The translations under genes were made by a program, and so were the position numbers. A stretch of 64,000 nucleotides of DNA from Leucoraja ocellata (taxonomy: Eukaryota): assembly GCA_036785375.1 (NCBI GenBank), contig JAWMAR010000054.1:9796001-9860000 (forward strand). Direction: 5' to 3'. Positions within the stretch are counted from its first letter, which is position 1. Each line of letters begins with the position of its first letter. The notes beneath the pieces were generated by a model. That model worked only from the letters and a program-made list of their open reading frames with translations. It was not told the origin of the DNA and did not search any database. Positions 4,317 to 63,399 of the stretch are shown piece by piece.

Positions 4317-5415
4317 TGTGGAGGATGGTGGGTTAGCACATTCAGGGCAGCTCTGCTGTGGCACATATTCAGGGTTCCTTGATGAGACTCAGGAGCAGGT
4401 TTGTGTACATCACCAAGTGGAACAAACAGATGCTTGATGCAGGGTAAAATTAATGCCACTTAAGATCATCTGGTGTTTCACCTTTCCACGTCCGAGCTGA
4501 ATCCAGCCAGTGCCAATACAATAACACCCACGCATACACACACTCCAACCAGGATTATGAAGCAGTAATTGTCAGCAGCTGACTTGGTGTATAGACCTTG
4601 GGAACTAGTGTTATGTCACCACTGGGTTTAGATCAGCAGAGTTAGCTCATTATGAGGACAACTTACCTAATTTCCCATTGCTCAGTTTCACCAATAGACA
4701 GCACCTGAGTTCATTTCTAACATGTGGCTCAGTTCATAACATGCTGAGCACAAATGCTTTCACTGCAAAAAGCCAACTTGAAAAATACAGGCATGGTTTA
4801 AGCAGGAATGCACTGAAATGCATGAAAGCTTTTTTTTTTTAACATTTTTTTGTAAGTAACTATTTTGCATGACAATGGCAACTAGAAACGATATTTATTG
4901 TAAATAAAGTGAAATAATGGCTTAAATATCTTTGCCCAGTTTCTCTTACAGGATAGTGTAGCCCTCACTGTGGATACTTGTCCATCTCTGGAGGAAGATG
5001 AAAATGTGGATCCTTTTAAGATATTCCCCAACTGCTGTAATTGCAAGAGCCCTGGAATGATGCATGAAGTACTCCATTTTATGTCCACTTATGCGATGAG
5101 GTCATCTGTGTGGTTTCAAAATGCAATCCTACTAACAGTCCATTATACCAATCCCCCCGACAGCGTAAAATATCAGCACACACAGAAGCTAATTAGTTTA
5201 TTAATACCATTCCAGAATCTGAAAGGCACAGTACTGTGTGGAAGGAAGGATCAGAATTATTTGCACCAAGTTAATGTTAAAAAATTATCTCTGAAAAACA
5301 ATATGCAGTTTTATTTTAACTGAACTGGCAAATCACAATCATCTGGATACAAAATCCTTTCCTTTTAGGATGCTTTCATTTTACATTCCTTTATTAAAGA
5401 GAGGGCTACATTTAA

Positions 5416-5876
5416 AGGGCCTGTCCCACCAGCATGCGATAGTACGTGTCAAGGGCGGGCAAACGTGGTCGCTTGAGGCGTATAGGCCTGGCTAGGCCGG
5501 TCCCACTTTGATCGGCGGAGGCGTATGGAGTTGTGGTCCCGACATCGCGCGGGGCTCCGAAAATCTTGCACTGTCCGAAAATCCCGCATTGAGGGCGTAC
5601 GCAGCGTCTGGACGGCGTACGCCTAGCGCTTGGCGTTGCGCAATGACGTCATCGCCCGGCGTGCCGTTGCGTGATGACGTCACCGCCCAACGCCGTGCGA
5701 CGTCCAAATTCAGTCGGCCCGCCTCCTGCCCAGCTGATTGGTGAGTATGATGTCGGGACCAGCCCCGCACAACTCCATACGCCTCCGCGGTTGGAAGTGG
5801 GACCGGCCCCGCGAGGCCGTACGCCTCAAGCCACCACGTTTGGTCGCGCTAGACGCATGCTGGTGGGACAGGCCAT
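5416..5876. mobile_element. PIF/Harbinger-like palindromic MITE
   Basis: TIR AGGGCCTGTCCCACCAGCATGCG / CGCATGCTGGTGGGACAGGCCAT; TAA on both flanks; long internal inverted symmetry. Confidence 0.8.
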
Positions 5877-5899
5877 TAAGGGTTTAATCATAGATTCTG

Positions 5900-9399: not shown

Positions 9400-9795
9400 T
9401 TTCGGGAGCTCGCAGGTCCCAGGTTGGTGACCGGTTTTTTCCGGAGCTCCCGCAACCACAGTTTCGTCCGCTGGACTGGAGGGCGGCAGCTTCGAGCGCT
9501 CCGGGCCGCGGCCCGTTCACGGAGCTCGGATTCAGCCGTGGGGCTGACTTACTTGTCATCACCCGGCGGGGTCACAACATCGGATGCCTGGATCGCCTCA
9601 ACGCAGAGGGAGAACAAGGAGGGAAGAGACAAGGACTTTAAGACTTTTGCCTTCCATCACAGTGAGGAGGTGCCTGGTAGACTCACTGTGGTGGATGTTA
9701 AATCTGTGTTAAGTGTGTGTTTTGTTATTTTATTCTATGTTATGACTGCAAGGCACGACTGTAAAGTCTGAATTACAATAAAGGATACTCTACTT
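9400..9795 (+). mobile_element. GC-rich non-coding retroposon, hairpin family
   Basis: Homologous to 19610-19930; stem-loop at 9653-9695; ACAATAAA plus short-repeat tail. Confidence 0.65.
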
Positions 9796-14377: not shown

Positions 14378-14918
14378 AGGTAGACAAAAATGTTGGAGAA
14401 ACTCAGCGGGTGCAGCAGCATCTATGGAGCGAAGGAAAAAGGCAACGTTTTGGGCCGACACCCTTCTTCAGACTGATGGGGGGGGAGGGGAGAAGAAAGG
14501 AAAAAGGAGGAGGAGGAGCCCGAGGGCTGGGGAATGGGGAGGAGACAGCAAGGGCTAACAAAATTGGGAGAATTCAATCAGTCTGAAGTCTACATCAGTC
14601 TGAAGAAGGGTTTCGGCCCGAAACGTTACCTATCTCCTTCGCTCCATAGATGCTGCTGCACCCGCTGAGTTTCTCCAGCATTTTTGTGTACCCGGGAGAA
14701 TTCAATGTTCATGCCCCCAGGATGCAGACACCCCAAGCGGAATATGAGGTGCTGTTCCTCCAATTTCCAGTGTTGCTCGCTCTGGCCATGGAGGAGACCC
14801 AGGACAGAGAGGTCGGATACGGAATGGGAGGGGGGTTGAAGTGCTGAGCCACCGGGAGGTGCGGTTGGTTATTGCGGACCGAGCGGAGGAATCCAGCAAA
14901 ACGATCGCCCAAGCCTAC
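14378..14918 (-). mobile_element. Penelope-like element 3' part (GIY-YIG C-terminus plus pLTR) with nested opposite-strand pLTR at 14579-14693
   Basis: LGDRFAGFLRSVRNNQPHLPVAQHFN...LEEQHLIFRLG..MNIEFSQ; nested piece flanked by GGGAGAATTCAAT duplication. Confidence 0.82.
14600..14627 (+). ncRNA. Minimal type-I hammerhead ribozyme motif (PLE pLTR)
   Basis: CTGAAGA-A-GGG(TTTCGG)CCC-GAAA-CGTT; activity untested. Confidence 0.6.
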
Positions 14919-19008: not shown

Positions 19009-19609
19009 AGTGGTTATTCAATGTTGGAATGAGTTTGGTTGAATGAAGAAGGTGGTGATGCAGCACCAATCCTATCCTTGAGGATCTTAATCATTTCTTA
19101 TGGGTAATCACAGAGACTATTTATTCTCAGATAGCACGACTTAAGTACCCAACATCCGTATACAGCCTTCAAATTGGCAGCCTATTCCAACAATCAAGGT
19201 CATTTGTTCCTGTCATTGTGCCAATATTCACAACACCCACAGTCTATTGTAGGATTCTCAGGACAACAACCAGAAGAAGGAAAGCCAGCCAGTTAGTTTT
19301 CCCCTTGCTGTTTCAGAGATGCTACAGCACTAGCAAATTCACTACCCACTAAACAAATTAGGAATCTATTCTCAGATAAACCCATTAGATCATAAAGGGG
19401 TTCTTATCTGCCATGTTTTAGAAGTCCTTCTTGCATCGTATGAAGGGAACATTTTCAGCTATTATGCAATACTGCCAACATAATTCAAAATGCACCAGAT
19501 CCAGTAAATAGTTATTTTCCACGAGCTGTCCAATAAAGCATCTGTATTTGAGGTCCTGTGGTGATTTTTTTTTGTTATTTTATTCTAAATAACCCTCACC
19601 AATGAGTAC

Positions 19610-19930
19610 GAGAACTGGACTGGGGGGCGGCAGCTTCGACCACCGCGGGCCGCGCAGCTTGAACCGACCCCTTCGCGGAGCTCGGTTGAGCCGCGGGACT
19701 GACTTACCATCGCCCGGTGGGATAACAACATCGGAGGCCTGGATCGCCTCAGCGCAGAGGGAGAAGAAGGAGGGAAGAGACTTTAAGACTTTTGCCTCCA
19801 TCACAGTGAGGAGGTGCCTGGTGAACTCACTCTGGTGGATGTTAATTTGTGTGTTTTGTTATTTATTATTATATGTATGACTGCAAGGCAACGAAAATTT
19901 TGTTCTGACCGAAATAATCTAATCTAATCA
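19610..19930 (+). mobile_element. GC-rich non-coding retroposon, hairpin family
   Basis: Homologous to 9400-9795; stem-loop at 19797-19839; (TAATC)n tail. Confidence 0.65.
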
Positions 19931-23439: not shown

Positions 23440-23990
23440 ATATATATTTTAAAAATAGTTTTATTAGAAGCAATGTACAGTAGTATACGCCGCAACATAT
23501 GACAAAATACATTTAATGTACCTTCCATTTTAATTGAACAAGAAAGAAATAGAAGAGAAAAAGAGTGAGAAAGAGAAAGAGAGAAAGAGAAAGAAATAGT
23601 GAATGTGTAAACTCCTAGACTACCAGATAGTGCAGTCCGTGTAAACCCCTAGACTACCAGATAGTGCAGTCCGGGAGTGAATGTGTAAAAGCCTATAGAA
23701 TCGTAAGAAGACAAAAAACAAAAAATAATAAAGAAAAATAAAAAAGGGACCTTTACATGTTGATATACCTGCTTCATTTCTCACCACAACCCATCACCCT
23801 GTCCGTGAATCGGTTTAATTCCAGAGTTGTGTTGCACCATATTATACTTGTAATGAATCAATGAAAGGAGACCATATCTTTAAAAATTGCTCTGTGATGC
23901 TCCTGCTAAGACGAGTCTCATATCTTCAAGATGTAGTGTCTCAGACATGCTTGTGATCCACATTTTAAGCCTTGGGGTGGATACATTTAT
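23440..23990 (-). mobile_element. L1/Tx1-clade LINE 3' end
   Basis: TPRLKMWITSMSETLHLEDMR...QFLKIWSPFI ORF2 C-terminus; UTR with AATAAA; two ~34-bp tandem units near 23606-23673. Confidence 0.72.
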
Positions 23991-24907
23991 CCAGCAAGAG
24001 AAAGGATATTAGTACAGGTCCACCGTCAATTTTTTGGCCCTTTTTCAATCCGGGCAAAATTACAAGAGCGCATTTGGAAATCCCCCCCCCCCCAGGAAGT
24101 CCCCCCGAAAAATGTAGCGCCCACGCGGGTGAGACGACCGATCTAGACTTCGCTGGGACTTCCGCGCCGATTGGCAGATCGAATTTGCACCCTGTGGCTG
24201 GGGCTCTGGAACTGCAGCCTGGCTGGGAGCCGCAGATCCGTTCCCACAGTCGACTTCCACGGTCAATCCGCTAGTTGAATTTGCTCCCTGCAGCCGAGGA
24301 GCTAGAACTCTGACCCAGCCGGTAACCAGGAGATCCCTTCGCTTAGCTGACTTTCGAGGCTGACTTTGCGGGCCAATATCTCTCTCGCTCGGCTCCCCCA
24401 CTGCCCAGACGTACTGTTGCGGTACCGTTGGACTCTTCTCGGAGACCATTGCCTCTCTCCGCCAGTCTGGCAAAAGAGATATAATCCAGAAAGGCTCTGG
24501 AACCAAGAACGCTGGTGGGCCTGTATATCATCGGCAACATGTGTCAGTGTAATTTAAGGCAGCTGTAAAAAGACCACCACATGTTTTTAGACAAGCTAAC
24601 AGAATAATTCTTACTTTTAAAACAACAGTCACATGCGGTGAACGAAACTGAGTAAGCAACAGAAGAACTGCCATCAAAAATAACTTCATCCAAGTATTAC
24701 AGAATGGGGTATAAAAGGCAAGGCCATCTGCACGGTCGGTGGATGATTGATGAAAGCAAACCATTCCACAGGTCGCGCTTTCAATCTTTCTGACTATTTA
24801 TTGAATGTCACACAAAGCAAGGCGAAAAGCTAAATCACATTATATTCCTTCAAATAAAATGCAAGGTGGATGTTTTTGTTTGTACACATACACACACACA
24901 CACCTTA

Positions 24908-25761: not shown

Positions 25762-26240
25762 GGTGGAAAGCATCTTGTCTGGGAACATTACCATCTGGTT
25801 TGGGAATTGCTCTGCCCAGGACAAGAAGGCTCTGCAAAGAGTAGTGCGTTCGGCCGAACGCACTATGCGAACTTCACTCGCCCCCCCTGCAGGAACTATA
25901 CATCAGGAGGTGCAACTCCAGAGCCAACAATATCATGGGAGACCCCTTCCACCCCTGCAACGGACTGTTCCAGCTGCTACGGTCAGGCAAACGCCTCCGT
26001 TGCCATGCGGTGAGAACGGAGAGGTTGAGAAGGAGTTTCTTCCCAGAGGCCATTCGGACTGTAAACGCCTATCTCACCAGGGACTAACTCTACTGAACGA
26101 TTGTCCTTCCATTATTTATTATGTAAAGGTATATGTGTGTTAAGATTGCGTTTATAGGTTGTTTGTCTTTTTGCACAAAAGTCCGCGAGCATTGCCACTT
26201 TCATTTCACTGCACAACTCGAATGTGTATGTGACAAATAA
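25762..26240 (+). mobile_element. Rex1/Babar LINE 3' end
   Basis: ESILSGNITIWFGNCSAQDKKALQRVV...HPCNGLFQLLRSGKRLR...SFFPEAIR; (CTTGA)n tail. Confidence 0.85.
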
Positions 26241-26429
26241 ACTTGACTTGACTTGACTTGATAGTTCAGCCATAATTGAAAGTCATTACAAAACATGTCC
26301 GAGGCGCTACATCTTGAAAATATTAGACTTGTCTTGGCAGAAAAACCAGATCATTTCCAAGACATGGACATCATTCATTGATTTATTACAAGGATAGTAT
26401 GGTATAGAAACTTACAAAATTCTTAAGGG

Positions 26430-26629
26430 NNNNNNNNNNNNNNNNNNNNNNNNNNNNNNNNNNNNNNNNNNNNNNNNNNNNNNNNNNNNNNNNNNNNNNN
26501 NNNNNNNNNNNNNNNNNNNNNNNNNNNNNNNNNNNNNNNNNNNNNNNNNNNNNNNNNNNNNNNNNNNNNNNNNNNNNNNNNNNNNNNNNNNNNNNNNNNN
26601 NNNNNNNNNNNNNNNNNNNNNNNNNNNNN
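26430..26629. other. Assembly gap (200 N)
   Basis: N run. Confidence 0.99.
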
Positions 26630-26735: not shown

Positions 26736-26897
26736 CCGCCCATCCGCCCGCCCTCGGGCTCCTCCTCCTCCCCTTTTCCTTCCTTCTTCACCCCCCATCA
26801 GTCTGAAGAAGGGTTTCGGCCCGAAACGTTACCTATTTCCTTCGCTCCATAGATGCTGCTGCACCTGCTGAGTTTCTCCAGCAATTTTGTGTACCTT
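26736..26897 (+). mobile_element. PLE pLTR fragment
   Basis: Matches the region 3' of the GIY-YIG stop at 50952-51195. Confidence 0.8.
26803..26830 (+). ncRNA. Minimal type-I hammerhead ribozyme motif
   Basis: CTGAAGAAGGGTTTCGGCCCGAAACGTT. Confidence 0.6.
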
Positions 26898-28511: not shown

Positions 28512-29038
28512 GTGCTTCTACGCAGCGGCGATGGAAAGCATCTTGTCCGGGAACATTACCATCTGGTTTGGGAATTGCTCTGCCAAGGACAAGAAGGCTC
28601 TGCAGAGAGTAGTGCGTTCGGCCGAACGCACTATGGGAACTTCACTCGCCCCCCCTGCAGGAACTATACATCAGGAGGTGCAACTCCAGAGCAAATAAAA
28701 TCATGGGAGACCCCTTCCACCCCTGCAACGGACTGTTCCAGCTGCTACGGTCAGGCAAACGCCTCCATTGCCATGCGGTGAGAACGGAGAGGTTGAGAAG
28801 GAGTTTCTTCCCAGAGGCAATTCGGACTGTAAACGCCTATCTCACCAGGGACTAACTCTACTGAACGTTTTTCCTTCCATTATTTATTATGTAAAAGAAT
28901 ATGTGTGTTATGATTGTGTTTATAATTTGTTTGGTTGTTTTGTTGTTTGTCTTTTGCACAAAAGTCCGCGAGCATTGCCACTTTCATTTCACTGCACATC
29001 TCGTATGTGTATGTGACAAATAAACTTGACTTGACTTG
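28512..29038 (+). mobile_element. Rex1/Babar LINE 3' end inserted in the CR1-B tail
   Basis: Near-identical to 25762-26240; (CTTGA)n tail. Confidence 0.85.
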
Positions 29039-29294
29039 TCTATCAATGAAGGGTTACCGAAATCCAGAAATGCCAGCAATGGACAATGCTGCACCACGAT
29101 GACTTTTGTAAACTAGTGGCAATTGATACGCAATAATCACACATGGTGATGTTGTGCAAGTGGATTTTATCTGCAAGCTGATCATGTACTGATTCCTGCT
29201 GTCAACCAGGTCTCTGGGTGGTCAGGGGATCAACCTCCATGGACATCACGTGCACTGGTTCGATTCACTGCACATACACAGTTCACAGGAGTGT

Positions 29295-29616
29295 TCACCC
29301 GACGCCGGAGTTCCATCTTCCCGGCAAAGAGGGCCTGTAACATCGGACTGGCTGCGGAGGCCACAAAAAGGCCCCAACCTCGGGTAATCACAGAGGAAGA
29401 GGACTTAACTTTCTGATTCCTTTCCCCACAGCGGAAAATTTTGATTCTGTTGTGGGGGGGACATTCATGTTGAATTCTATAATGTGTTGTGTCATTTTTC
29501 TTTTTTTTAATTTTTCTATGGATGTACGGAAACTTAATTATTTCTTCTATGTCAAGCACTTTGGTTTCAACGCGAGTTGATTTAAACGCGCAATATAAAT
29601 AAAATTTACTTACTTA
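29295..29616 (+). mobile_element. GC-rich retroposon, hairpin family, with L2-like tail
   Basis: Stem-loop at 29423-29461; AAGCACTTTG...ATATAAATAAA(TTAC)n tail, which resumes after the MITE. Confidence 0.55.
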
Positions 29617-30094
29617 AGGGCCTGTCCCACGAGCATGCGACTGCATGCGGCAAGCGCGACCAAACCGGAAGCGGGGGGCCACCCAATCCCCGTACAGGGC
29701 CTGTCCCGTGAGCATGTGACTGCATGCGGCGAGCGCAACCAAACTGGAAGCGGGGGCCGCGCGGAGGTCGAGTGATCCCCGTACGAGTTGACGTGAAGTT
29801 CGAGCGAAGTCCGCGGGAAGTTCGCGTGTGACGTACGGCGTCAAGACGCTGCGCGCGCCCGTCGGGACGGTGCGTACGGCCTCAATGCGGCTGCGGGCCG
29901 GCAGGCCGTTGCCGCGTGGAATTTTTGAACACGGTCAGTTTTTCGGAGCCCCGTGCGATTCGGGACCAGCTCCGCACAACTCCATACGGCTCCGGCGATC
30001 GAAGTGGGACCGGCCCCGCGAGGCCGTACGACTCAAGCGACCACGTTAGGTCGCGCTTGCCGCATGCAGTTGCATGCTCGTGGGAACTGGCCCT
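29617..30094. mobile_element. PIF/Harbinger-like MITE with duplicated left end
   Basis: TIR AGGGCCTGTCCCACGAGCATGC; flanks TTA/TGA; left terminus repeated at 29696. Confidence 0.8.
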
Positions 30095-31074
30095 TGACTT
30101 ACTTACACATGGAGCTGGGTGTCAAACAAAGTAGCCACATCTGAGTCCAGAGGGTTGTGAGGCCAGTGTCAACTGTACTTCAAGGCCCATCTGCTGCGGG
30201 GGATTTGCCCGGTGTTGTGTCTCTGCTTCCAGTCTTGTCCTCTGCACCCTTATACTCACTGCCGATTATCATACCACCCACAGTCTCCTATCCTCTACAA
30301 GTTGAAAGATCTTGGAAGAAAAAGCTTTGAGGATGATTGCACTTGCAGAGTTGGACCTCCCACACACGATGCTTTGGGAGTCAGGCACAATGGACACTGC
30401 AGTGTCATCTGGTTGACCTGCACATCGCAGTGGGGGGTCCTCTCCGTGATACGTCTTCAACGTGAAGACTTGCAAACCCAATCTATCTTCTTGAACTTTC
30501 AGAAGATTTCAAAGAGCTAAGGTTGCCAATCAGAATGCACTCGTTTTCAAATAGGTTAAAACAAGATGACTTTTTGCAGAGAGAATTCAGTGAATAGATT
30601 ACACTTGAGCAAAGAAAGTTGCAAAGCCGTTCTTCCAAAGCGGTTTTCCTCACATCCTTTGCCACGTATTGCAAAACTGCATTTCAATTGTATCCAGATC
30701 GCCATTCACGCTCAAGAATGTGAAACAGATGTGTCTTCTTGCAAAATAGAATTAGAAAATGGTGAAAACGCTCAGCAGATCAGGCAGCATTTGTAAAAAG
30801 ACTGAATTAACATTCAAGGTTAAAACTCTCTGGTTGGAACGAGAAACAAATGAGCTGCTCTTGATGCTGGAAACACACAGCAGGCCGGGCAGCATCTGTG
30901 AAACACCGGTAACTTTTGAGGCCAATGTTCTGATCAAGCGTCTTCATTTGCAGAGAGGGTGGCTGCATGATGGGTGGACAAAGGCTTTGAAAGGCCAAGG
31001 CCATGATCGCTGTAGAACAGTGCAGCTAATTGTAGAACAGTGCAGCTTAGAAACAAACCCTAAAGTCCCCAATG

Positions 31075-36269: not shown

Positions 36270-36490
36270 AGAAACAAATTGGTGGAGAACCTCAGCGAGT
36301 CAGGCAGCATCTGTGGAAGGAATGGACAAAGCTTCTGTTCAGTCGGAATCTTTCAACAATCTGAAGAAGGGTCACGATTTGAAACACCGTCTGTCTATTT
36401 CCCCCACAGATGCCTCCTGGTTTGCTGAGCTCCTTCAGCGGTTTGCTTTTTGCTCTAGATTCTAACGTCTGCAGTTTCTTTAGTCTCCTT
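36270..36490. mobile_element. Old PLE-derived palindrome; similar remnants at about 3227, 18710, 21555, 25420, 30720, 34555 and 50570
   Basis: CTCAGC.GGTCAGGCAGCATCTGTGG...CTGAAGAAGGG...CACAGATGC..GCTGAG. Confidence 0.65.
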
Positions 36491-37399: not shown

Positions 37400-37712
37400 A
37401 TAGACTTTGGAATTTAGAGATTCAGCATGGAAACAGGCACTTTGACCCATCGAGTCGATGCCGACCAGCGATCATCCCGTACACGAGCACTATCCTACAC
37501 ACTAGGGACAATTTGCAAATTACAGAAGCCAATTAGCCTATAAACCTGAGTGTCTTTGGCGTGAGGGAGTAAACTGGAGCAGCTGGAAAAAACCCACACA
37601 GTCACAATGAGAACATGCAAACACCACACAGACAGAACCCATAGTCAGGATTGAACCCGGGTCTCTGGCGCTGTAAGGCAGCAACTCGATAGCTGCACCA
37701 CTGAGCCGCCCC
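37400..37712 (-). mobile_element. tRNA-derived V-SINE (HE1-like), full length
   Basis: A-box TGGTGCAGCT, B-box GGTTCAATCC, V-domain GTTTGCATGTTCTC, CR1-like tail GGCCTGTTTCCATGCTG-type. Confidence 0.85.
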
Positions 37713-41770: not shown

Positions 41771-42218
41771 TAGAAACATAGAAATTAGGTGCAGGAGTAG
41801 GCCATTCGGCCCTTCGAGCCTGCACCGCCATTCAATATGATCATGGCTGATCATCCAACTCAGTATCCCGTACTCCGGTAGGCGGCGCGGCTCTGGCCAG
41901 CAGCGGCCTCTGCAGCCTGTCCGCGTTTTTATTATTTTTTGTCTGTGTTTTTATGTAGTTTTTGTTATTTTATGTTGGGGTGTGTGTGTGGGGGGGCGGG
42001 GGTGGGGTGGGAGGGGGCGGGAAACTTTTTGAATCTCTCCCTGCACTGGTGACCCGACCTTTTCTCGTCGGGTCTCAGGTGTCGTTGAGGCCGCAACGAG
42101 GAGCGGCCTCCAACGGGAAGAGACCGGGGACTCAGGTGTCGACTCACCGTTGCCGTCGCGGAGCTGGCCGAGACCGGAGCGGGTGGAGCGGTGGAGGAGC
42201 GCTGCTGCTGCTGCTGTC

Positions 42219-42254
<36 letters not shown>

Positions 42255-43003
42255 ACCGGAGAGTCGGAGGCTCCAACGACGGGTCTGTGGACGACGGCAC
42301 CGGGAGCCCACGGCTCCCTGGAGGGAGACCGCTTCTCAGGGCTCCTGCAACGGCGACTTCTCCCGCCCGAGTTGCGGGGTTGAAGAGCTCCTGGAGCGGG
42401 GCCTGACACCACTGCCCCGCGCGGCTGGAATGGCCGCGGACTCTGCGAGCGCACACCGGGGGCTCTAACACCAAGACCCGGTGTGCGACCTCGCACCACC
42501 CGGCGTGGCTTTAATGGCCGCGGGACAATCGCCATCGCCAGCCGGGGGCTATGACTTTGACTCTGACATCGGGGGGGGGGGGAGAGTGCAGTGGAGAGAT
42601 AAGTTTATTTGGCCTTCCATCACAGCTATGTGATGGATGTTTATGTTAAATGTAATTATTGTTGTGTCTGGGGTCTATTTGTATGTAATGTATGGCTGCA
42701 GAAACGGCATTTCGTTTGGACCTCCAGGGGTCCAAATGACAATTAAATTGACTCTGACTCTGACCTGCCTTCTCTCCATACCCTCTGATCCCCTTAGCCA
42801 CAAGGGCCACATCTAACTCCCTCTTAAATATAGCCAATGAACTGTGGCCTCGACTACCCTCTGCGGCAGAGAGTTCCAGAGATTCACCACTCTCTGTTGT
42901 GAAAAAAGTTCTTCTCATCTCGGTTTTAAAGGATTTCCCCCTTATCCTTAAGCTGTGACCCCTTGTCCTGGACTTCCCCAACATCGGGAACAATCTTCCT
43001 GCA
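41771..43003 (-). mobile_element. CR1-A split by the 41874-42762 insertion
   Basis: CAGTATCCCGTAC|...|ACCTGCCTTCTC continuity. Confidence 0.88.
41874..42762 (+). mobile_element. Young ~890-bp CpG-rich non-coding retroposon, hairpin family, with (GCT)n tract
   Basis: Inserted in a young CR1; two 3' stem-loops; (GACTCT)n tail. Confidence 0.75.
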
Positions 43004-44221: not shown

Positions 44222-45095
44222 CTTTCACCATTTCTTGTTGAACAATGGAAAGCATTCCAAAGGTGTCAGGAATGTATTTTCCTCAGTAAAAACAGATTGA
44301 ACATCAGATAAAAATCTAAAGTCCTTACCTTTACTAAATCATGCAGAAACAATTGCTTAGCAGCTATATGTTTATGGGATATTCAAAGTTAGTCAACTTA
44401 AAGTAAAAAGTAGTTAACAATTCTTTCTTGTGTGGACAAATTAATCTGAGATACATTAAGCTGTTTTTAATGTTGTGAATGTGAATTTTAAGCAGGAAAA
44501 GCAGGATATCATCAGTTCACCCCTTCATCTTAAAGTAAGTATTAAAGTGGTCATGCTGGTTCTTTTGTTTGACATAGAAATTTTGACCTGCTCCACCTCC
44601 AGAGACCTGGTACATTCATTCATCCAAACTATCGGTCTGAAAGTATGCTCGCAAGGAAAAACACTTTAGGTGAGTGAAGTCCCATGTTTGCCCTCATCCC
44701 AAATCTTGGGGGGTTGCAGGATTGACCAAACAGCAAATTACTCTACACTTCATTAAAATAAAACAATTCACATTAATAGTGAATGGTCGACACTGCGAAT
44801 CTCAGACCGTGGCCAGTGCACTCGTCCCAGAATTAATATGTAGCATACAATCTCAAAATGGCAACGACTGGTTTGTGTACATCATTTGGCCAGAATCAGA
44901 CATTTGCTCCTTTCAGTGGTCATAGGTCAAGCAAAAATAGAGGAGAACAGTCAGTCTTTAGATCTCCTTTGGACAACTCAGCAAGGACAACTTGCAAAGA
45001 CCTGGGACTATTCCTGGGATTCTGGAACTATTCCTGCAACCCCTGTAAGAAAAATACCATTGGTGCAAGAGAATGCGATTGCTCTTGTTCCCATA

Positions 45096-45766
45096 AGGGC
45101 CTGTCCCACTTACGTGTCCTTGGCACGCAAATTACGTGACCTCGTGGTAGCGTTGAGGCGTACGGGCATCGTATGGCCGCGCGGGGCCGGTCCCACTGAG
45201 AAGCGCGGAGGGGAATGTAGTTGTACGTGACATCGCGCGGGGCTCTGAAATTTTTGTAGCGAACGAAATCTTCTCGCGCCAACGGCCTGTCGTGGAACTG
45301 ACGGCCAAAGTGGGACAGGCCCAAGACCCTGGCACGACGCAACGTCTCACCTCCAACAGCAGCAGAAGCCGGCAAACCATCGCCGAACTCGGCCTGGGGC
45401 TCACGGCCGTTGTGGTCCGGATCCGCCCCCACTTCTACTCCCAGAGCGGGGCCAAGAAAATTGAAGATGGACACAAAATGCTGGAGTAACTCAGCGGGAC
45501 CGGCAGCATCTCTGGAGAGAAGCAATGGGTAACGTTTCGGGTCAAGATCCTTCTTTTCAGACTGAAGAAGAGTCTCGACACAAAATGTCACCCATTGCTT
45601 CTCTCAAGAGATGCTGCCGGTCCCGCTGAGTTACTCCAGCTTTGTGTCCATCTTCAAATGACGTCACGCGCTCCAGACGGCTGTGCGGTCGAATGAAATC
45701 GCGCGCGACCTTCGCGGGACCGTGGCGTAATTTGCGTGCCAAGGACACGTAAGTGGGACAGGCCCT
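45096..45766. mobile_element. PIF/Harbinger-like MITE containing a PLE palindrome (45461-45657)
   Basis: About 40-bp TIR AGGGCCTGTCCCACTTACGTGTCCTTGGCACGCAAATTACG; close homologue at 58775-59458. Confidence 0.85.
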
Positions 45767-46282
45767 TCACTGTCAGGACTCTTATAAACTGTTTTACAAG
45801 TCAGTTTGACCAATAATAATTGTATTGCTTTTTCTGGAGGCTGAGGGGTTGATCTGAAAGTATATAAAATGATAAAAGACATAGATGGGGGGTAATGGTG
45901 AGAGTCTTTTTCACGGGGGTGGGAAGGTCAAACAGCACAGGACAGAGTTTTAAAAATGAGTGTGGGAAAATTCAACGGCAAATTTAAAAAAAAAACAGAC
46001 AGTGTGTAATTGCCTGCTGCACCAAGCCACAAAGCAGATACAACTGCAACATTTAACATGCATGTGGACAGACATGAATAGAGGGATATATGTGCAAGTA
46101 CATATGATTAAATGAGTTTACACGCAGACAGGGTAGGCTGAATGGCCTGTTCTTGTGTTGTGGTTTACTATGTTGTAATCAGATCATGCACAATCTACAC
46201 CGATGTAAGAGTTATATCAAGATAAACTCAAGAATACCAAATGGGCAAACACCATCTATAAGTAGCATTCACACATGTCGTT

Positions 46283-46531: not shown

Positions 46532-47056
46532 NNNNNNNNNNNNNNNNNNNNNNNNNNNNNNNNNNNNNNNNNNNNNNNNNNNNNNNNNNNNNNNNNNNNN
46601 NNNNNNNNNNNNNNNNNNNNNNNNNNNNNNNNNNNNNNNNNNNNNNNNNNNNNNNNNNNNNNNNNNNNNNNNNNNNNNNNNNNNNNNNNNNNNNNNNNNN
46701 NNNNNNNNNNNNNNNNNNNNNNNNNNNNNNNNNNNNNNNNNNNNNNNNNNNNNNNNNNNNNNNNNNNNNNNNNNNNNNNNNNNNNNNNNNNNNNNNNNNN
46801 NNNNNNNNNNNNNNNNNNNNNNNNNNNNNNNNNNNNNNNNNNNNNNNNNNNNNNNNNNNNNNNNNNNNNNNNNNNNNNNNNNNNNNNNNNNNNNNNNNNN
46901 NNNNNNNNNNNNNNNNNNNNNNNNNNNNNNNNNNNNNNNNNNNNNNNNNNNNNNNNNNNNNNNNNNNNNNNNNNNNNNNNNNNNNNNNNNNNNNNNNNNN
47001 NNNNNNNNNNNNNNNNNNNNNNNNNNNNNNNNNNNNNNNNNNNNNNNNNNNNNNNN
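46532..47056. other. Assembly gap (525 N)
   Basis: N run. Confidence 0.99.
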
Positions 47057-47208: not shown

Positions 47209-47565
47209 AGTTTTGCAGCAGTAGATTCGCGACCTTATAGCGGCATAAACCAGGGTTCGATCCTGACTACGGGCGTCGCTTGTACGGAATTTGTACGGTT
47301 TCCCTGGGTTTTCTCCGGGCGCTCCGGTTTCCTCCCACATTCCAAAGAGGTGCAGGTTTTCACTTCATTTCACTTGCACTTTATGTGCAATGTGACAAAT
47401 AAAATCATATTGTATTGTAGTGTATTGGTTTGTAGGTTAATTGGCTTCTGTAAATTCTCCCAAGTGTGTAGCAAAGAACTAGTGTACAGTTGATTACTGA
47501 TTGGCACGGACTCAGTGAGTTGAATGGCCTTTTCCCCACACTGTATCGCTAAAATTAAAACTAAC
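47205..47565 (+). mobile_element. V-SINE (HE1-like) with a LINE tail inserted at about 47362-47420
   Basis: B-box GGTTCGATCC; TCCGGTTTCCTCCCAC V-domain; CR1-like tail. Confidence 0.8.
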
Positions 47566-52099: not shown

Positions 52100-52455
52100 C
52101 ATTCTTCGACCGCCGGCCTGCGGCTTACACCAACCTGAAGCCGCGCACGGTCTCCGGTGGGGAAACACCGATTCTGGACTTACATGGACCTTTACCTTGT
52201 CTACACATCTGGACGCCCGCAGCGGCAGCTGTGGAGGGTTGAGGTCCCGACCACGGGGGGGAAATGGAGGAGGACTGGCCAAATTTTGTGCCTTCCACCA
52301 CAGTGATGAATGCTGTGGTGGATGTTTGTGTTCAATTCTTATTGTGTTTTTGTGTGTTCTTTTTTCATTGTAATGCTGCTGGCAAATTCATTTCACTTGC
52401 ACTTTATGTGCAGTGTGGCGAATAAAACTGATATTGATTGATTGATTGATTGATA
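52100..52455 (+). mobile_element. GC-rich retroposon, hairpin family
   Basis: Stem-loop at 52294-52322; CATTTCACTTGCAC...AATAAA(ATTG)n tail. Confidence 0.62.
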
Positions 52456-57617: not shown

Positions 57618-57845
57618 GTAGCGCCAGAGACCCAGGTTCAATCCCGACTACAGGTGTTTGTCTGTACGGAGTTTGCACGTTCTCCCCATGACCAAGTGGG
57701 TTTTCTCCGAGATCTTCGGTTTCCTCCCACACTCCAAAGACATAAAGGTTTGTAAGTTAATTGGCTTGGTGTAAATGTAAAATTGTCCCTAGTGTGTATA
57801 GGGCAGTGTTAATGTGTTGGGATCGCTGGTCGGCACGGACTCGAA
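57618..57845 (+). mobile_element. V-SINE (HE1-like), truncated
   Basis: GGTTCAATCC B-box; GGAGTTTGCACGTTCTCCCC V-domain. Confidence 0.82.
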
Positions 57846-58317
57846 GTCTCAACTTTGCACCAGAATAGAGTTTCTACAGATAATATTTGGAATTCCTGCT
57901 TTTGGAACGAGCTAAAGTTGATGATATATTACGGAGATATATTAAGGAGCTTCAAGATTATGAAAGATTACAACTGCAAAAATAGTAATAATTTCATTCC
58001 TTTGGTCGTCAGGAAGAAGCCACATTGAAAATAATCTCAAATAATTCAAGCAGAGAGTTGGGTCAACATTTTCCTTCAAATACCAGTATTAAAAAGGAAA
58101 TTAGATGATGGTTTCAAGAAGAGAAATATGAAAAGAGTATTCAAGAACAAGCAAGGATACAGGATGGAAGTAGAGGACGAGACCACATAAATGTGGACCT
58201 ACCTGATGGATTATATGCCTTTTTCTGTGTTACATTTGCTGTGACCTACTCTACAATACAACTTTGAAGATGGTACCAATACACAAGCAAGTTCTGCAGT
58301 CTATAACTGGTGTAAAA

Positions 58318-58650: not shown

Positions 58651-58774
58651 CTGGATACCTAGTTAAATGTAAGCAGTGAGAATTATGCAACTTTTAACAC
58701 AGGATATGATAGCAATTAAAGTACCAATTTTGACAGATGCTGCTGAGAATCCATAGTCTTTAACAGTAGTCTAA

Positions 58775-59458
58775 AGGGCCTGTCCCACTTACGTGTCCTT
58801 GGCATGCAAATTACGTGATCTCGTGGTCGGGTTGAGGTGCACGGGCATCGTATGGCCGCGCGGGGCCGGTCCCACTGAGAAGCGCGGAGGGGTATGTAGT
58901 TGTGCGCGACATCGCGCCGGGCTCCGAAATTTTTGTAGCGAACGAAATCTTCGCGCGCCAACGGCCTGTCGCGGAACTGACGGCCAAAGTGGGACAGGCC
59001 CAAGACCCTGGCACGACGCAACGTCTCACCTCCAACAGCAGCAGAAGCCGGCAAACGATCGCCGAACTCGGCCTGGGGCTCACGGCCGTTGCGGTCCGGA
59101 TCCGCCCCCACTTCTACTCCCAGAGCGGGGCCAAGAAAATTGAAGATAGACACAAAATGCTGGAGTAACTCAGCGGGACCGGCAGCATCTCTGGAGAGAA
59201 GCAATGGGTGACGTTTCGGGTCAAGACCCTTCTTTTCAGACTGAAGAAGAGTCTCGACACGAAACGTCACCCATTCCTTCTCTCCAGAGATGCTGCCGGT
59301 CCCGCTGAGTTACTCCAGCTTTGTGTCCATCTTCAAATGATGTCACGCGCTCCAGACGGCCGTGCGGGTGCATGAAGTCGCGCGGGACCGTCACGCCTCA
59401 ACGCGACCACGAGGTTGTGTAATTAGCGTGCCAAGGACACGTAAGTGGGACAGGCCCT
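58775..59458. mobile_element. PIF/Harbinger-like MITE containing a PLE palindrome (59140-59336)
   Basis: TIRs as at 45096; flanks TAA/TTA. Confidence 0.85.
59241..59268 (+). ncRNA. Hammerhead-like motif inside the MITE
   Basis: CTGAAGA-AGAGTCTCGACAC-GAAA-CGTC, with one mismatch in helix II. Confidence 0.45.
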
Positions 59459-60676
59459 TTAGATTCCATTTCATAAAAGACGGTGCACTCATTTAACTGA
59501 ATACCAATCCCAGCAAAACAAGTGTGCATGATTAAAATCTCAATGGCAATAATTTGTATTTATTTGCCAATTGTACACCAGCTAAACCTTCCACGACACA
59601 ACTGAACACAATTAATGCAGTAGGGCAGGGAACAAAAGGTTTAATCTAAGAGGGGGCATTTTAAGAAGCATCCAGGAAAAGTTAGAATGAGATATAAGGG
59701 GGCGGTGGAAATTCCAGAGCCAAGAGGCTTGTTGGCCAAAGTGCTTCACATTTGTTATAGATAATCAAGAATCTTGAAACAGAGCTGTGTGTAAATGTCA
59801 GGAGTTGTACAGCCTGAACAGCAAGGCCATGGGGGAAATGCAGTAATCTAAATAGAAACACTCTTTAACTGGGGGAGTTAATTCTTATCCGTACGTACTG
59901 TGGTGATGGGCAATGCGTGGTAGGCAATGCGTTTTCAATTACATCAAATATACAGAACACAAGGCAGGATTACCAGGAACCAAGCACAGATCCTGGCAGT
60001 GCCATAAGAGTTTCTTTCATCACCAAGCTGCCAGCCTAATCTTTTCTTTCTGAATACCTTGCAACCAAGAATAATATGTTCCCACACCTCACATCAGTTC
60101 TCGTGTTGCTGCCACCATAATGCTATCCCATGTGGGATATTTTGACTCTAATTGACAAATTTAATTACATGCTATATGCATTTTCACACATGCCTTCCCA
60201 GGCCTTCTTACAAAAGGACAAACAGGTTTTCTCTCCCAGCCTCTAATTGTGTTGTAATATTGTGTATAATAAAGTGTTCTCAGCAGCTGCACACTACATT
60301 TGGACTTATGAATGTAGTAAATATCTATCTTTTATCGTCTTTCTTGTTTCTATTCCATCCAATTATCGATGTTTCACCCGTTTGATGCTCTCAAACCCAA
60401 CACCAAGCAACCTTCACATGTGGCCACGATAGCCCCTGCATTCCTCACGACAATCCCAAACAGACAAGTCTTTATCTTCTCTCTTCAGAGCTCTGTCGAT
60501 CAACTTCCTCTTGTTTGTCCAACAGATTGGTGTCAACAATTCAGATCATTATTCATCTTTCCCTTTCCTAATTGCACATTTTTTCAAAACGATTGTTTGC
60601 TTTCCAGGTTAAACTTCAAAAAAAACTTTTGAATGGCATCCTTTCATTGCCCCATGAACACTCTCATCTATAACTA

Positions 60677-61873: not shown

Positions 61874-62039
61874 TATGCAAGGGTACTGTTCCTATCCAAA
61901 AACGAATTTCTAAGTCAGTCCGAAACATCCATTTTCTATAGTAACCCATGTTGTATTGGTCGATAAACTTGCTATTATACTTTCATTTCATTAAATAATC
62001 ATGCGAACTCTGCCCATAAACAAATGAAATATATACAGT

Positions 62040-62685
62040 ATGCTATCAGTAACGAATACCTGGAAACATTCAAAAATTATTTAACGAGCGTGTGGGGGGG
62101 TTACAATTTAAGAGGAATATTTAATTTTAAGAAACAAAGAGTCGGTACGACTATAAAAACCTTTTGTATTTCGGTTTGTGGAGTAGGAGTGTGGAACAAA
62201 TTGAACGAGGAATTAAAGCAATGTACAAACATGAATCATTTTAAAATGATATATAAAAAAATAATTTTGAAGGGTTTGGACACGTGGGGGTTAATGTTTA
62301 TCTATTGCTTTACAATTGTTTACTTATGTTTGGTTACTTCATATATGAAGTTTGTATGTGTATAATAGCTGTATGTATATATATGTCTGTAGGTATTATG
62401 GGAAATTGACTGGGGTAGTATTATTATTAGTAATTAATAGATTTTTAAATATGGTAGAAGAGTTGGGGAAAAGGGGTGAGATTTAATAAGTTATTCTTCT
62501 TCTCACTCCTTTTCGAGCTTGTACAGACACAGAGTTGGACATTGGACATTTGCTTTTTGTTCTTTTCATTGCTTGTAAATATTGATTGTAATGTCCAATT
62601 GTTTGATAATTTCGATTTTGTTACTATTAATGTCTTTAATGTCTTTACTTGTTCGGAATAAATAAAATAAATAGAAAAAAATAGA
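62040..62685 (+). mobile_element. Crack/Daphne-like (CR1-group) LINE 3' end
   Basis: YNLRGIFNFKKQRVGTTIKTFCISVCGVGVWNKLNEELKQC...FK..YKK; A-rich tail. Confidence 0.68.
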
Positions 62686-63399
62686 AAAATACCTTGCAAT
62701 ACTTAAATTGCCTAAAGTCAGATTTCCATAAGTCAAGTCATTCGTAACACAGGGAGCCCTTGCGTTATGGAAAGAAAAATAATGGGTAACTTCAAGAATC
62801 TACGTTCAACGTCACCACAAATGACTCGTCACTAGAACATTTCAAAGGTCTGTATATAAACTGCGAATGTTCTGAACTGGGGAAGATCCGAAATGACCAT
62901 ATTATACCTCGAAACCCAGCATTGGGTAGACCATTGCTAATGTATTTCACCTCCACTGTGTCAATATTAGAAGGGAACTAAAAAAAATAAGATGGAAAAA
63001 CACAAGGCCAAACACAAACATATATAAATCACCTGAACATGAATGCAGCAAAGGTTAATACACCCAATCTGGTCAGCAAACTGGCAGGCTCCTCAAAGAT
63101 AGCCATCACTACAATAATACTTCACCCTTCACCCACTTCCAACTAATCATCATCAACAGCAGCAGAGTATTGTGCACCAGTATGGAGATATTTGATACAT
63201 CCAAACTCACATCCAGCTCAATTCAACTAAAAGCACATCACCACAGGAAATCCTGGTTCCTAGCTCTGAGACACATCACTTCCCCTCACAGTTAGGAGAG
63301 ACATCACAACAAGCGGGCAGTTCAAGAGGATTCATGACAAACCAAGGCAGCTTCTACAAAGATCGTGTTAACCACAACATCACAACAGGATCTTGAGCT

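Follow-up and report, generated by a model that had tools for sequence, protein, structure and literature searches.

Bipartite LINEs (RIME/Ingi, NARTc/L1Tc, Bov-A, WALLSI3, Vingi and the R2 derivatives) join the 5' end of a partner LINE to its 3' tail, contain no ORF and are presumed to be transcribed by Pol II (PMC5786205). The available part of that 2018 survey lists such ORF-less forms for RTE, Ingi, Vingi and R2 only and makes no mention of Rex1. We analyzed a stretch of 64,000 nucleotides from the skate Leucoraja ocellata (contig JAWMAR010000054.1, positions 9,796,001 to 9,860,000; “the window”) that contains five elements, named E1 to E5 (Table 1). One of them, E4, resembles the bipartite LINEs in all of these respects. 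However, its partner appears to be Rex1, outside the four clades listed in the available part of the survey (PMC5786205), and approximately 600 to 700 nt in its middle have no known LINE origin, so that E4 is not a simple internal deletion of a LINE.

Other composite retroposons are alike in part. The CORE, V, Deu, Meta and UCON3 SINEs combine an internal module with more than one LINE tail, according to the accessible parts of their descriptions (PMC7245038, PMC11481361). In the skate elements this internal module consists of a short hairpin close to the 3' end, and E4, with 889 nt, T-runs and no tRNA, 5S or 7SL head, is set apart from those SINEs as they are described. In BuceSINE and ManaSINE2, RTE SINEs of birds, an untraced GC-rich sequence is likewise combined with pieces of a LINE 5' and 3' UTR; in the available part of the description (PMC4844689) it lies 5' of the RTE bipartite tail, whereas in E4 the Rex1 5' end precedes it and the tail follows. 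SVA, as the accessible part of its description has it, is also composite and non-autonomous; it measures at least 700 bp, its middle is GC-rich and contains repeats, and its copies are often 5'-truncated (PMC4229983). This likeness implies no sequence relationship. Unlike E4, SVA possesses a poly(A) tail and target site duplications and is mobilised by L1.

Finally, the autonomous batoid Rex1 LINEs themselves (HypSab_Rex1-11, HypSab_Rex1-7 and the LeuEri_Rex1 families), in the available part of their description, share with E4 a set of 5' motifs followed by a T-rich tract and a stem-loop tail with a variable repeat, but E4 differs from them in having no ORF (PMC13343379). Rex1 accounts for 6.6% of the little skate genome and 9.1% of the stingray genome. 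No paper describing the present elements was found in the literature, where our coverage extended to work outside subscription papers and Repbase Reports; uncurated entries may exist.

Five elements with a hairpin near the 3' end

An earlier note on this DNA had described five separate, non-coding, SINE-like elements with one layout: a CpG-rich body, a purine run, a hairpin, a T/G-rich run and a LINE-type tail with a microsatellite. We found this layout again, and all five stems were recovered in place on the + strand. On the other hand, E1 and E2 are 79.9% identical over 299 columns and belong to one family, and there are therefore four lineages rather than five. The elements can be kept together as a non-coding retroposon group with a common hairpin core, but the SINE label had to be given up in view of the 889 nt, the Rex1 5' end and the T-runs of E4. 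That all five lie on the + strand is not significant (p = 0.06 by simple arithmetic). A protein search also returned an ENA protein record, P0001, which stems from a spurious ORF in an additional E1-like copy located elsewhere.

Table 1. Positions of the elements, of the parts of E4 and of associated features in the window.
Feature	Position	Strand	Description
E1	9402-9794	+	apparent 5'-truncated relative; hairpin 9653-9695; Rex1-type tail with internal deletion
E2	19610-19929	+	E1 family, apparently 5'-truncated; broken stem 19797-19839; distal tail deleted; (TAATC)n
E3	~29295-29617	+	core and L2-like tail (~29550-29603), (TTAC)n; hairpin 29424-29457; 5' boundary uncertain
E4	41874-42762	+	889 nt, probably full-length; inside young CR1 (HER1-like) 3' fragment
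Rex1-like 5' terminus of E4	41874-41977	+	GC-rich 52 nt, then T-rich tract; presumed internal Pol II promoter; no ORF start
E4 middle	41978-42570	+	GC/CpG-rich, non-coding; origin not traced
E4 core	42571-42690	+	purine run, hairpin 42616-42637, T/G-rich run
E4 Rex1-type 3' tail	42690-42762	+	small hairpin, 12-bp stem-loop, AATAAA-like motif, (TGACTC)n
E5	52100-52454	+	apparent 5'-truncated relative; hairpin 52294-52322; Rex1-type tail, (ATTG)n
ORF-bearing Rex1-type 3' fragment	28522-29038	+	candidate type of partner; another copy at 25764-26258
Possible decayed tRNA-like Pol III head upstream of E3	29215-29266	+	B-box-like 10-mer at 29257

The window is non-coding vertebrate DNA in which approximately 39% of the bases have another copy inside the window, mostly in CR1-type 3' fragments. 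Its mix of repeats, together with the Rex1 matches to stingray and skate given below, fits an elasmobranch and probably a skate or ray. A family of short repeats, abundant and often arranged as inverted pairs, occurs at 14600-14624, 26803-26827, 36361-36385 and 59241-59265 (+ strand) and at 46411-46387 (- strand). A compact motif in these repeats (CTGAAGA, a short stem, GAAAC) resembles the core of a hammerhead in shape; Rfam gave no hammerhead match, and we take the family to resemble Penelope-type terminal repeats. CpG-rich elements with terminal inverted repeats, which we assume to be probably Harbinger-type MITEs, lie at 5415-5877, 45095-45767, 58774-59459 and 29618-30095, the last inserted directly after the E3 tail. 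At 61967-62690 lies the 3' part of a different type of LINE, presumably Crack/Daphne-like, whose UTR is long and AT-rich. The GC-rich segment at 23960-24600 (- strand) has a 155-aa frame, is unlike any repeated family in the window and is possibly the 5' part of another retroelement. Two assembly gaps (N runs) span 26430-26629 and 46532-47056, the second adjoining a CA-rich minisatellite.

The relationship among the elements extends beyond the hairpin. Homology among E1, E2 and E4 covers the body, the core and the tail: E1 9402-9513 aligns with E4 at ~42300-42404 (p = 0.001). The E5 body aligns with E4 at ~42086-42197 (p = 0.002, one of 15 comparisons). No alignment was found between the E3 body and the other element bodies (p ≥ 0.09). 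The sequence right after the hairpin is weakly common to E3, E4 and E5 (p = 0.002-0.036, among 21 comparisons), and four of the five elements, E3 included, carry ACATCGG at a distance of 50-82 nt upstream of the core; this heptamer has 20 matches in the window, 15 of them in CR1 copies and one elsewhere. A degenerate arm-gap-arm pattern derived from the copies matched four loci in the window (E1, E2, E4 and E5) and none of 100 shuffles, while a covariance model built from the five gave no sixth copy in the window (next match 16.2 bits, E = 0.96).

Tracts of the window at 47238-47359, 57619-57852 and 37413-37672 are tRNA-type SINE copies with B boxes, which we take to be probably V-SINE/HE1-like. 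Compared with these ordinary SINE bodies, the elements gave no match beyond the common tail at 47364. There, the SINE at 47238 is followed by a 54-nt tail (47364-47417) that is 89% identical to the E5 tail and is an orphan 3' remnant or another case of a SINE paired with such a tail.

Folding gave different outcomes for the different copies. The stem had been said to pair in every copy, which does not hold for E2: it carries a C-C mismatch, and its stem pairs have a probability of 0.06 or less when the whole element is folded. For E1, E3, E4 and E5, most stem pairs reach 0.9-1.0. The z-scores of the isolated hairpins were -2.76 (E1), -0.84 (E2), -3.81 (E3), -3.10 (E4) and -3.09 (E5). In the common 10-bp stem, 48 of 50 cells pair, and both sides change in two columns only, one of which depends on E3, whose register is ambiguous. 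The compensatory change previously taken as a sign of selection was not significant, as the observed value was reached by 57 of 500 shuffles (MAFFT alignment of five sequences from four lineages).

A better hint of structural constraint than covariation is that the stem is extended with unrelated sequence in three lineages, by non-homologous pairs amounting to 4 bp in E1/E2, 5 bp in E3 and 2 bp in E5. DNA-level repair of inverted repeats could also yield these extensions, and we therefore rate selection on the RNA structure of the hairpin as plausible and not higher.

The 3' edge of the hairpin lies 90-157 nt from the 3' end of the element. In all five elements the 5' arm ends in CAG preceded by a pyrimidine-rich tract, and by a crude count this CAG ranks between the top 0.5% (E3) and the top 11% of 3,828 YAG sites. 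No support was found for the core as a SECIS, IRE, snoRNA or ribozyme; in Rfam 15 the gathering score was reached by 0 of 19, 0 of 4 and 0 of 4 matches, and ARAGORN gave nothing at threshold. The hairpin pattern occurred at 10 loci in GTDB compared with 7.9 expected by chance, none of them resembling the window, and E4 and E1 had no match in plasmid and phage collections.

Rex1-like ends of E4 and the tails of the other elements

The site occupied by E4 is empty in other CR1 copies. Its flanks are identical to those copies at 100% (left) and 96-98% (right), and by this both ends of E4 are defined. No target site duplication was found at E4 beyond a 2-nt overlap.

To compare the E4 head with Rex1, we looked up short motifs from its first 45 nt in the supplement of PMC13343379, as far as available (the first 400 nt of each consensus, 579,336 characters). 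The 12-mer at 41880-41891 had one match in this supplement, at position 7 of the stingray consensus HypSab_Rex1-11, and it begins at position 7 of E4 as well. The 12-mer at 41898-41909 had two matches there, at the starts of HypSab_Rex1-11 and HypSab_Rex1-7. Among the consensuses given, GCAGCGGC occurs by eye in the first ~35 nt of 6 of the 19 from little-skate Rex1, compared with 0 of the 12 from CR1, L2 and Daphne. A T-rich tract comes next in both E4 and the HypSab_Rex1-11 consensus, after which an ORF opens in the consensus but not in E4. This match between E4 and the Rex1 5' end consists of an exact motif look-up and a comparison by eye, made for E4 only, and carries no alignment score. 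The partner LINE 5' end is kept in E4 over approximately its first 35 nt, and the 3' tail is kept in E4 and E5.

From 41926 onwards E4 contains seven runs of four or more T, which would stop Pol III, and it has no B-box match; it is therefore probably a product of Pol II. Its length exceeds the 700 bp limit of the SINEBase definition, and its head is that of Rex1 rather than of a Pol III transcript. Given the Rex1 head, the Rex1-type tail and the defined ends, E4 is most likely full-length, and the most likely reading of its sequence is an ORF-less bipartite Rex1 derivative made of a 5' end, a GC-rich middle, a hairpin and a Rex1-type tail. E1, E2 and E5 look like 5'-truncated relatives.

The E4 middle was not traced to Rex1, and for this reason we class the element as composite. 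Within it, a (GCT)n tract occupies 42201-42254, and one subunit is present twice, 84-86 nt apart (42410-42469 and 42494-42555); the fold of the whole of E4 had a z-score of -5.0 against 20 shuffles. Pfam gave no match to the middle, and no protein homologue was found for one reverse frame. No remnant of LINE ORF2 was detected in any of the five elements by comparison with the LINE C-termini of the window (best E = 0.24), and we discarded the idea of a conserved peptide, since the copies do not share their open frames. In the available part of PMC13343379, none of the consensuses contains, in its first 400 nt, any of five motifs taken from the middle of E1 and E4; a sixth, from E3, had a single match there, in one amphibian-labelled L2, which we treated as chance.

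Just upstream of E2, at 19565-19587, a T-rich 18-mer is identical to E1 9720-9737 and has 15 nt in common with the tract of the E4 head; it may be a relic of the E2 head or a low-complexity chance match. A consensus 5' splice donor lies antisense (- strand) in the bodies of E1 (9547-9552), E2 (19702-19707), E4 (42142-42147) and E5 (52178-52183), a possible route to exonisation. These donors may be chance, as the hexamer occurs 42 times on the - strand of the window.

We take the ORF-bearing fragment at 28522-29038 to be Rex1 from its C-terminal peptide, and the clade label of the tails is our assumption likewise; Pfam, a homologue search and the PDB gave no name for the clade of this fragment. 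In the tail alignments p = 0.003 is the floor set by 300 shuffles. This value was obtained for the E5 3' end against the 3' end of the ORF-bearing LINE fragment (28955-29024), for the E2 tail against the E4 tail, for the E1 tail against the E2 tail, and for the E4 tail against one of two orphan tails of the same class (p = 0.007 for the other). The E1 and E4 tails aligned weakly (p = 0.04-0.08), and different parts of the Rex1-type tail are missing in E1 and E2. A stem-loop followed by an AATAAA-like motif appears in the predicted folds of E4, E5 and three further tails of the class. The 161-nt 3'UTR of the ORF-bearing fragment does not contain the core hairpin.

The earlier note had counted four different tails and proposed that one core recruits different LINE partners. 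The microsatellites do differ, but the tails fall into two classes only, E1, E2, E4 and E5 being alike and E3 different. What stands is that the core occurs with at least two tail classes; four partners do not, and the swap is based on one copy, E3. The (GACTCT)n repeat had to be assigned to E4, the 3' end of E1 being a short TACTC-type repeat. Rex1-type tails in the window end in several different microsatellites, and according to the available part of PMC6274825 a variable oligonucleotide repeat comes after the conserved 3'UTR of Rex1. The microsatellite is therefore no guide to the partner.

The E3 tail aligned with none of 13 other 3' ends (p ≥ 0.116), and its designation as L2-like is a label that we assume. 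The absence of a tRNA head, as reported earlier, was borne out for E4. On the other hand, the only perfect B-box-like 10-mer of the window lies approximately 35 nt upstream of E3. Neither Rfam nor ARAGORN matched a tRNA there, no cloverleaf was found and the fold was not above shuffles. Since the ordinary SINEs near 37656, 47255 and 57636 have tRNA-type heads that both programs failed to detect as well, their silence on E3 is weak evidence. E3 may be a true SINE; as an account of E3 alone, which leaves E4 unexplained, we regard this as rather unlikely.

Proposed propagation of the elements and alternative explanations

Taken together, these data suggest that the elements are probably composite, ORF-less retroposons that parasitise Rex1 LINEs, with the full unit seen in E4 only. 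From this single full-length copy, the unit most likely comprises a Rex1 5' end, a GC-rich non-coding middle, the hairpin core, a Rex1-type 3' stem-loop tail and a microsatellite.

Such a unit could propagate as follows. Pol II would transcribe it from the retained Rex1 5' end, where the homology is observed and the promoter activity presumed. The single Rex1 protein would bind the stem-loop of the 3' tail in trans, as suggested by the homology observed among the tails and by experiments with stringent L2 elements, for which the available part of PMC4176376 demonstrates recognition of the tail stem-loop. Target-primed reverse transcription would then start in the microsatellite and leave no target site duplication, as observed at the E4 junction, and its outcome for most copies (E1, E2 and E5) would be 5' truncation. 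It could be speculated that the core hairpin is a local cis element in the RNA, which would shield the tail from the GC-rich body and at the same time hide the acceptor-like CAG and so keep the transcript intact; we put forward this joint role tentatively, with slightly less than even confidence. For the E3 lineage we lean slightly towards an origin in which the core would have been joined to an L2-like tail, probably via template switching, as judged from one copy. An extended form of this proposal, in which a superfamily of Pol II-transcribed, SVA-like composites in cartilaginous fishes would possess LINE 5' promoters, a selected acceptor-masking hairpin and switching between Rex1 and L2, seems rather doubtful.

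One alternative accepts a non-autonomous element but takes the hairpin, the T/G run and the tail to be the ordinary 3'UTR of one Rex1 lineage and not a core domain in its own right, with the stem kept through descent. The distance of the hairpin from the 3' end fits the 171-270 nt of non-coding sequence (length minus ORF) in four skate Rex1/L2 families of the available PMC13343379 data, the covariation is not significant, and the published Rex1 consensuses were compared over their first 400 nt only. However, the hairpin is absent from the ORF-bearing Rex1-type fragments of the window, including one with a tail matching that of E5, the core occurs with a different tail in E3, and the homology between lineages reaches into the body. 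We consider this explanation unlikely.

Another possibility is that E4 is a one-off chimera, formed by template switching or nested insertion, and not a replicating unit. E4 is a single copy, and the T-rich and G-rich tracts after its head could be junctions. This is nevertheless very unlikely, since the full 889 nt fill a single clean insertion site in a young CR1 copy. In addition, reverse-transcribed LINE 3' sequence would be expected at the end of such a chimera and not at its beginning, whereas the E4 head starts at the Rex1 5' terminus.

It could also be argued that the core is the body of a new superfamily of Pol III SINEs, in which E3 is tRNA-headed and L2-tailed and the other copies have lost their heads. 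The B-box-like 10-mer upstream of E3 is unique in the window, the silence of ARAGORN and Rfam counts for little when ordinary SINE heads are missed too, and one body with several LINE partners is known, as the accessible parts of PMC11481361 and PMC7245038 describe. Against this, no tRNA match or cloverleaf was found upstream of E3, and a definition of less than 700 bp and Pol III transcription (PMC3531059, available part) does not accommodate the Rex1 head, 889 nt and T-runs of E4; a superfamily of this kind is highly improbable. Least probable of all, that all five elements are 5'-truncated autonomous LINEs with very long (>890 nt) 3'UTRs would suit the four of five copies that are 5'-truncated and have no defined head, but the Rex1 5' end stands at the start of E4 in the corresponding position, the 889 nt of E4 hold no ORF2 remnant, and five long-ORF skate Rex1/L2 families leave just 14-270 nt non-coding in the available PMC13343379 data.

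Significance for LINE partnerships and for skate and ray genomes

Of these explanations we retain composite retroposons that parasitise Rex1. E4-type elements probably extend the known strategy of the bipartite LINEs to a new element group and to Rex1, as their sequences suggest. If this is true, the Rex1 case would mean that the clade bias of bipartite LINEs is not absolute and that single-ORF LINEs of the CR1 group can be parasitised by Pol II passengers. Elements of this type would escape surveys seeded on the RT domain, such as that described in the available part of PMC13343379, and with five occurrences in 64 kb they may account for a considerable share of skate and ray genomes that is still unannotated. 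We do not imply any function for them in the host.

If a core is common to lineages with Rex1 tails and lineages with L2 tails, young copies would offer a test of the hypothesis that bipartite LINEs gave rise to SINE bodies. If, in addition, the tRNA head of E3 is real, the core would have been caught on its way from a bipartite LINE to a Pol III SINE, and the origin proposed for SINE body domains would be seen directly.
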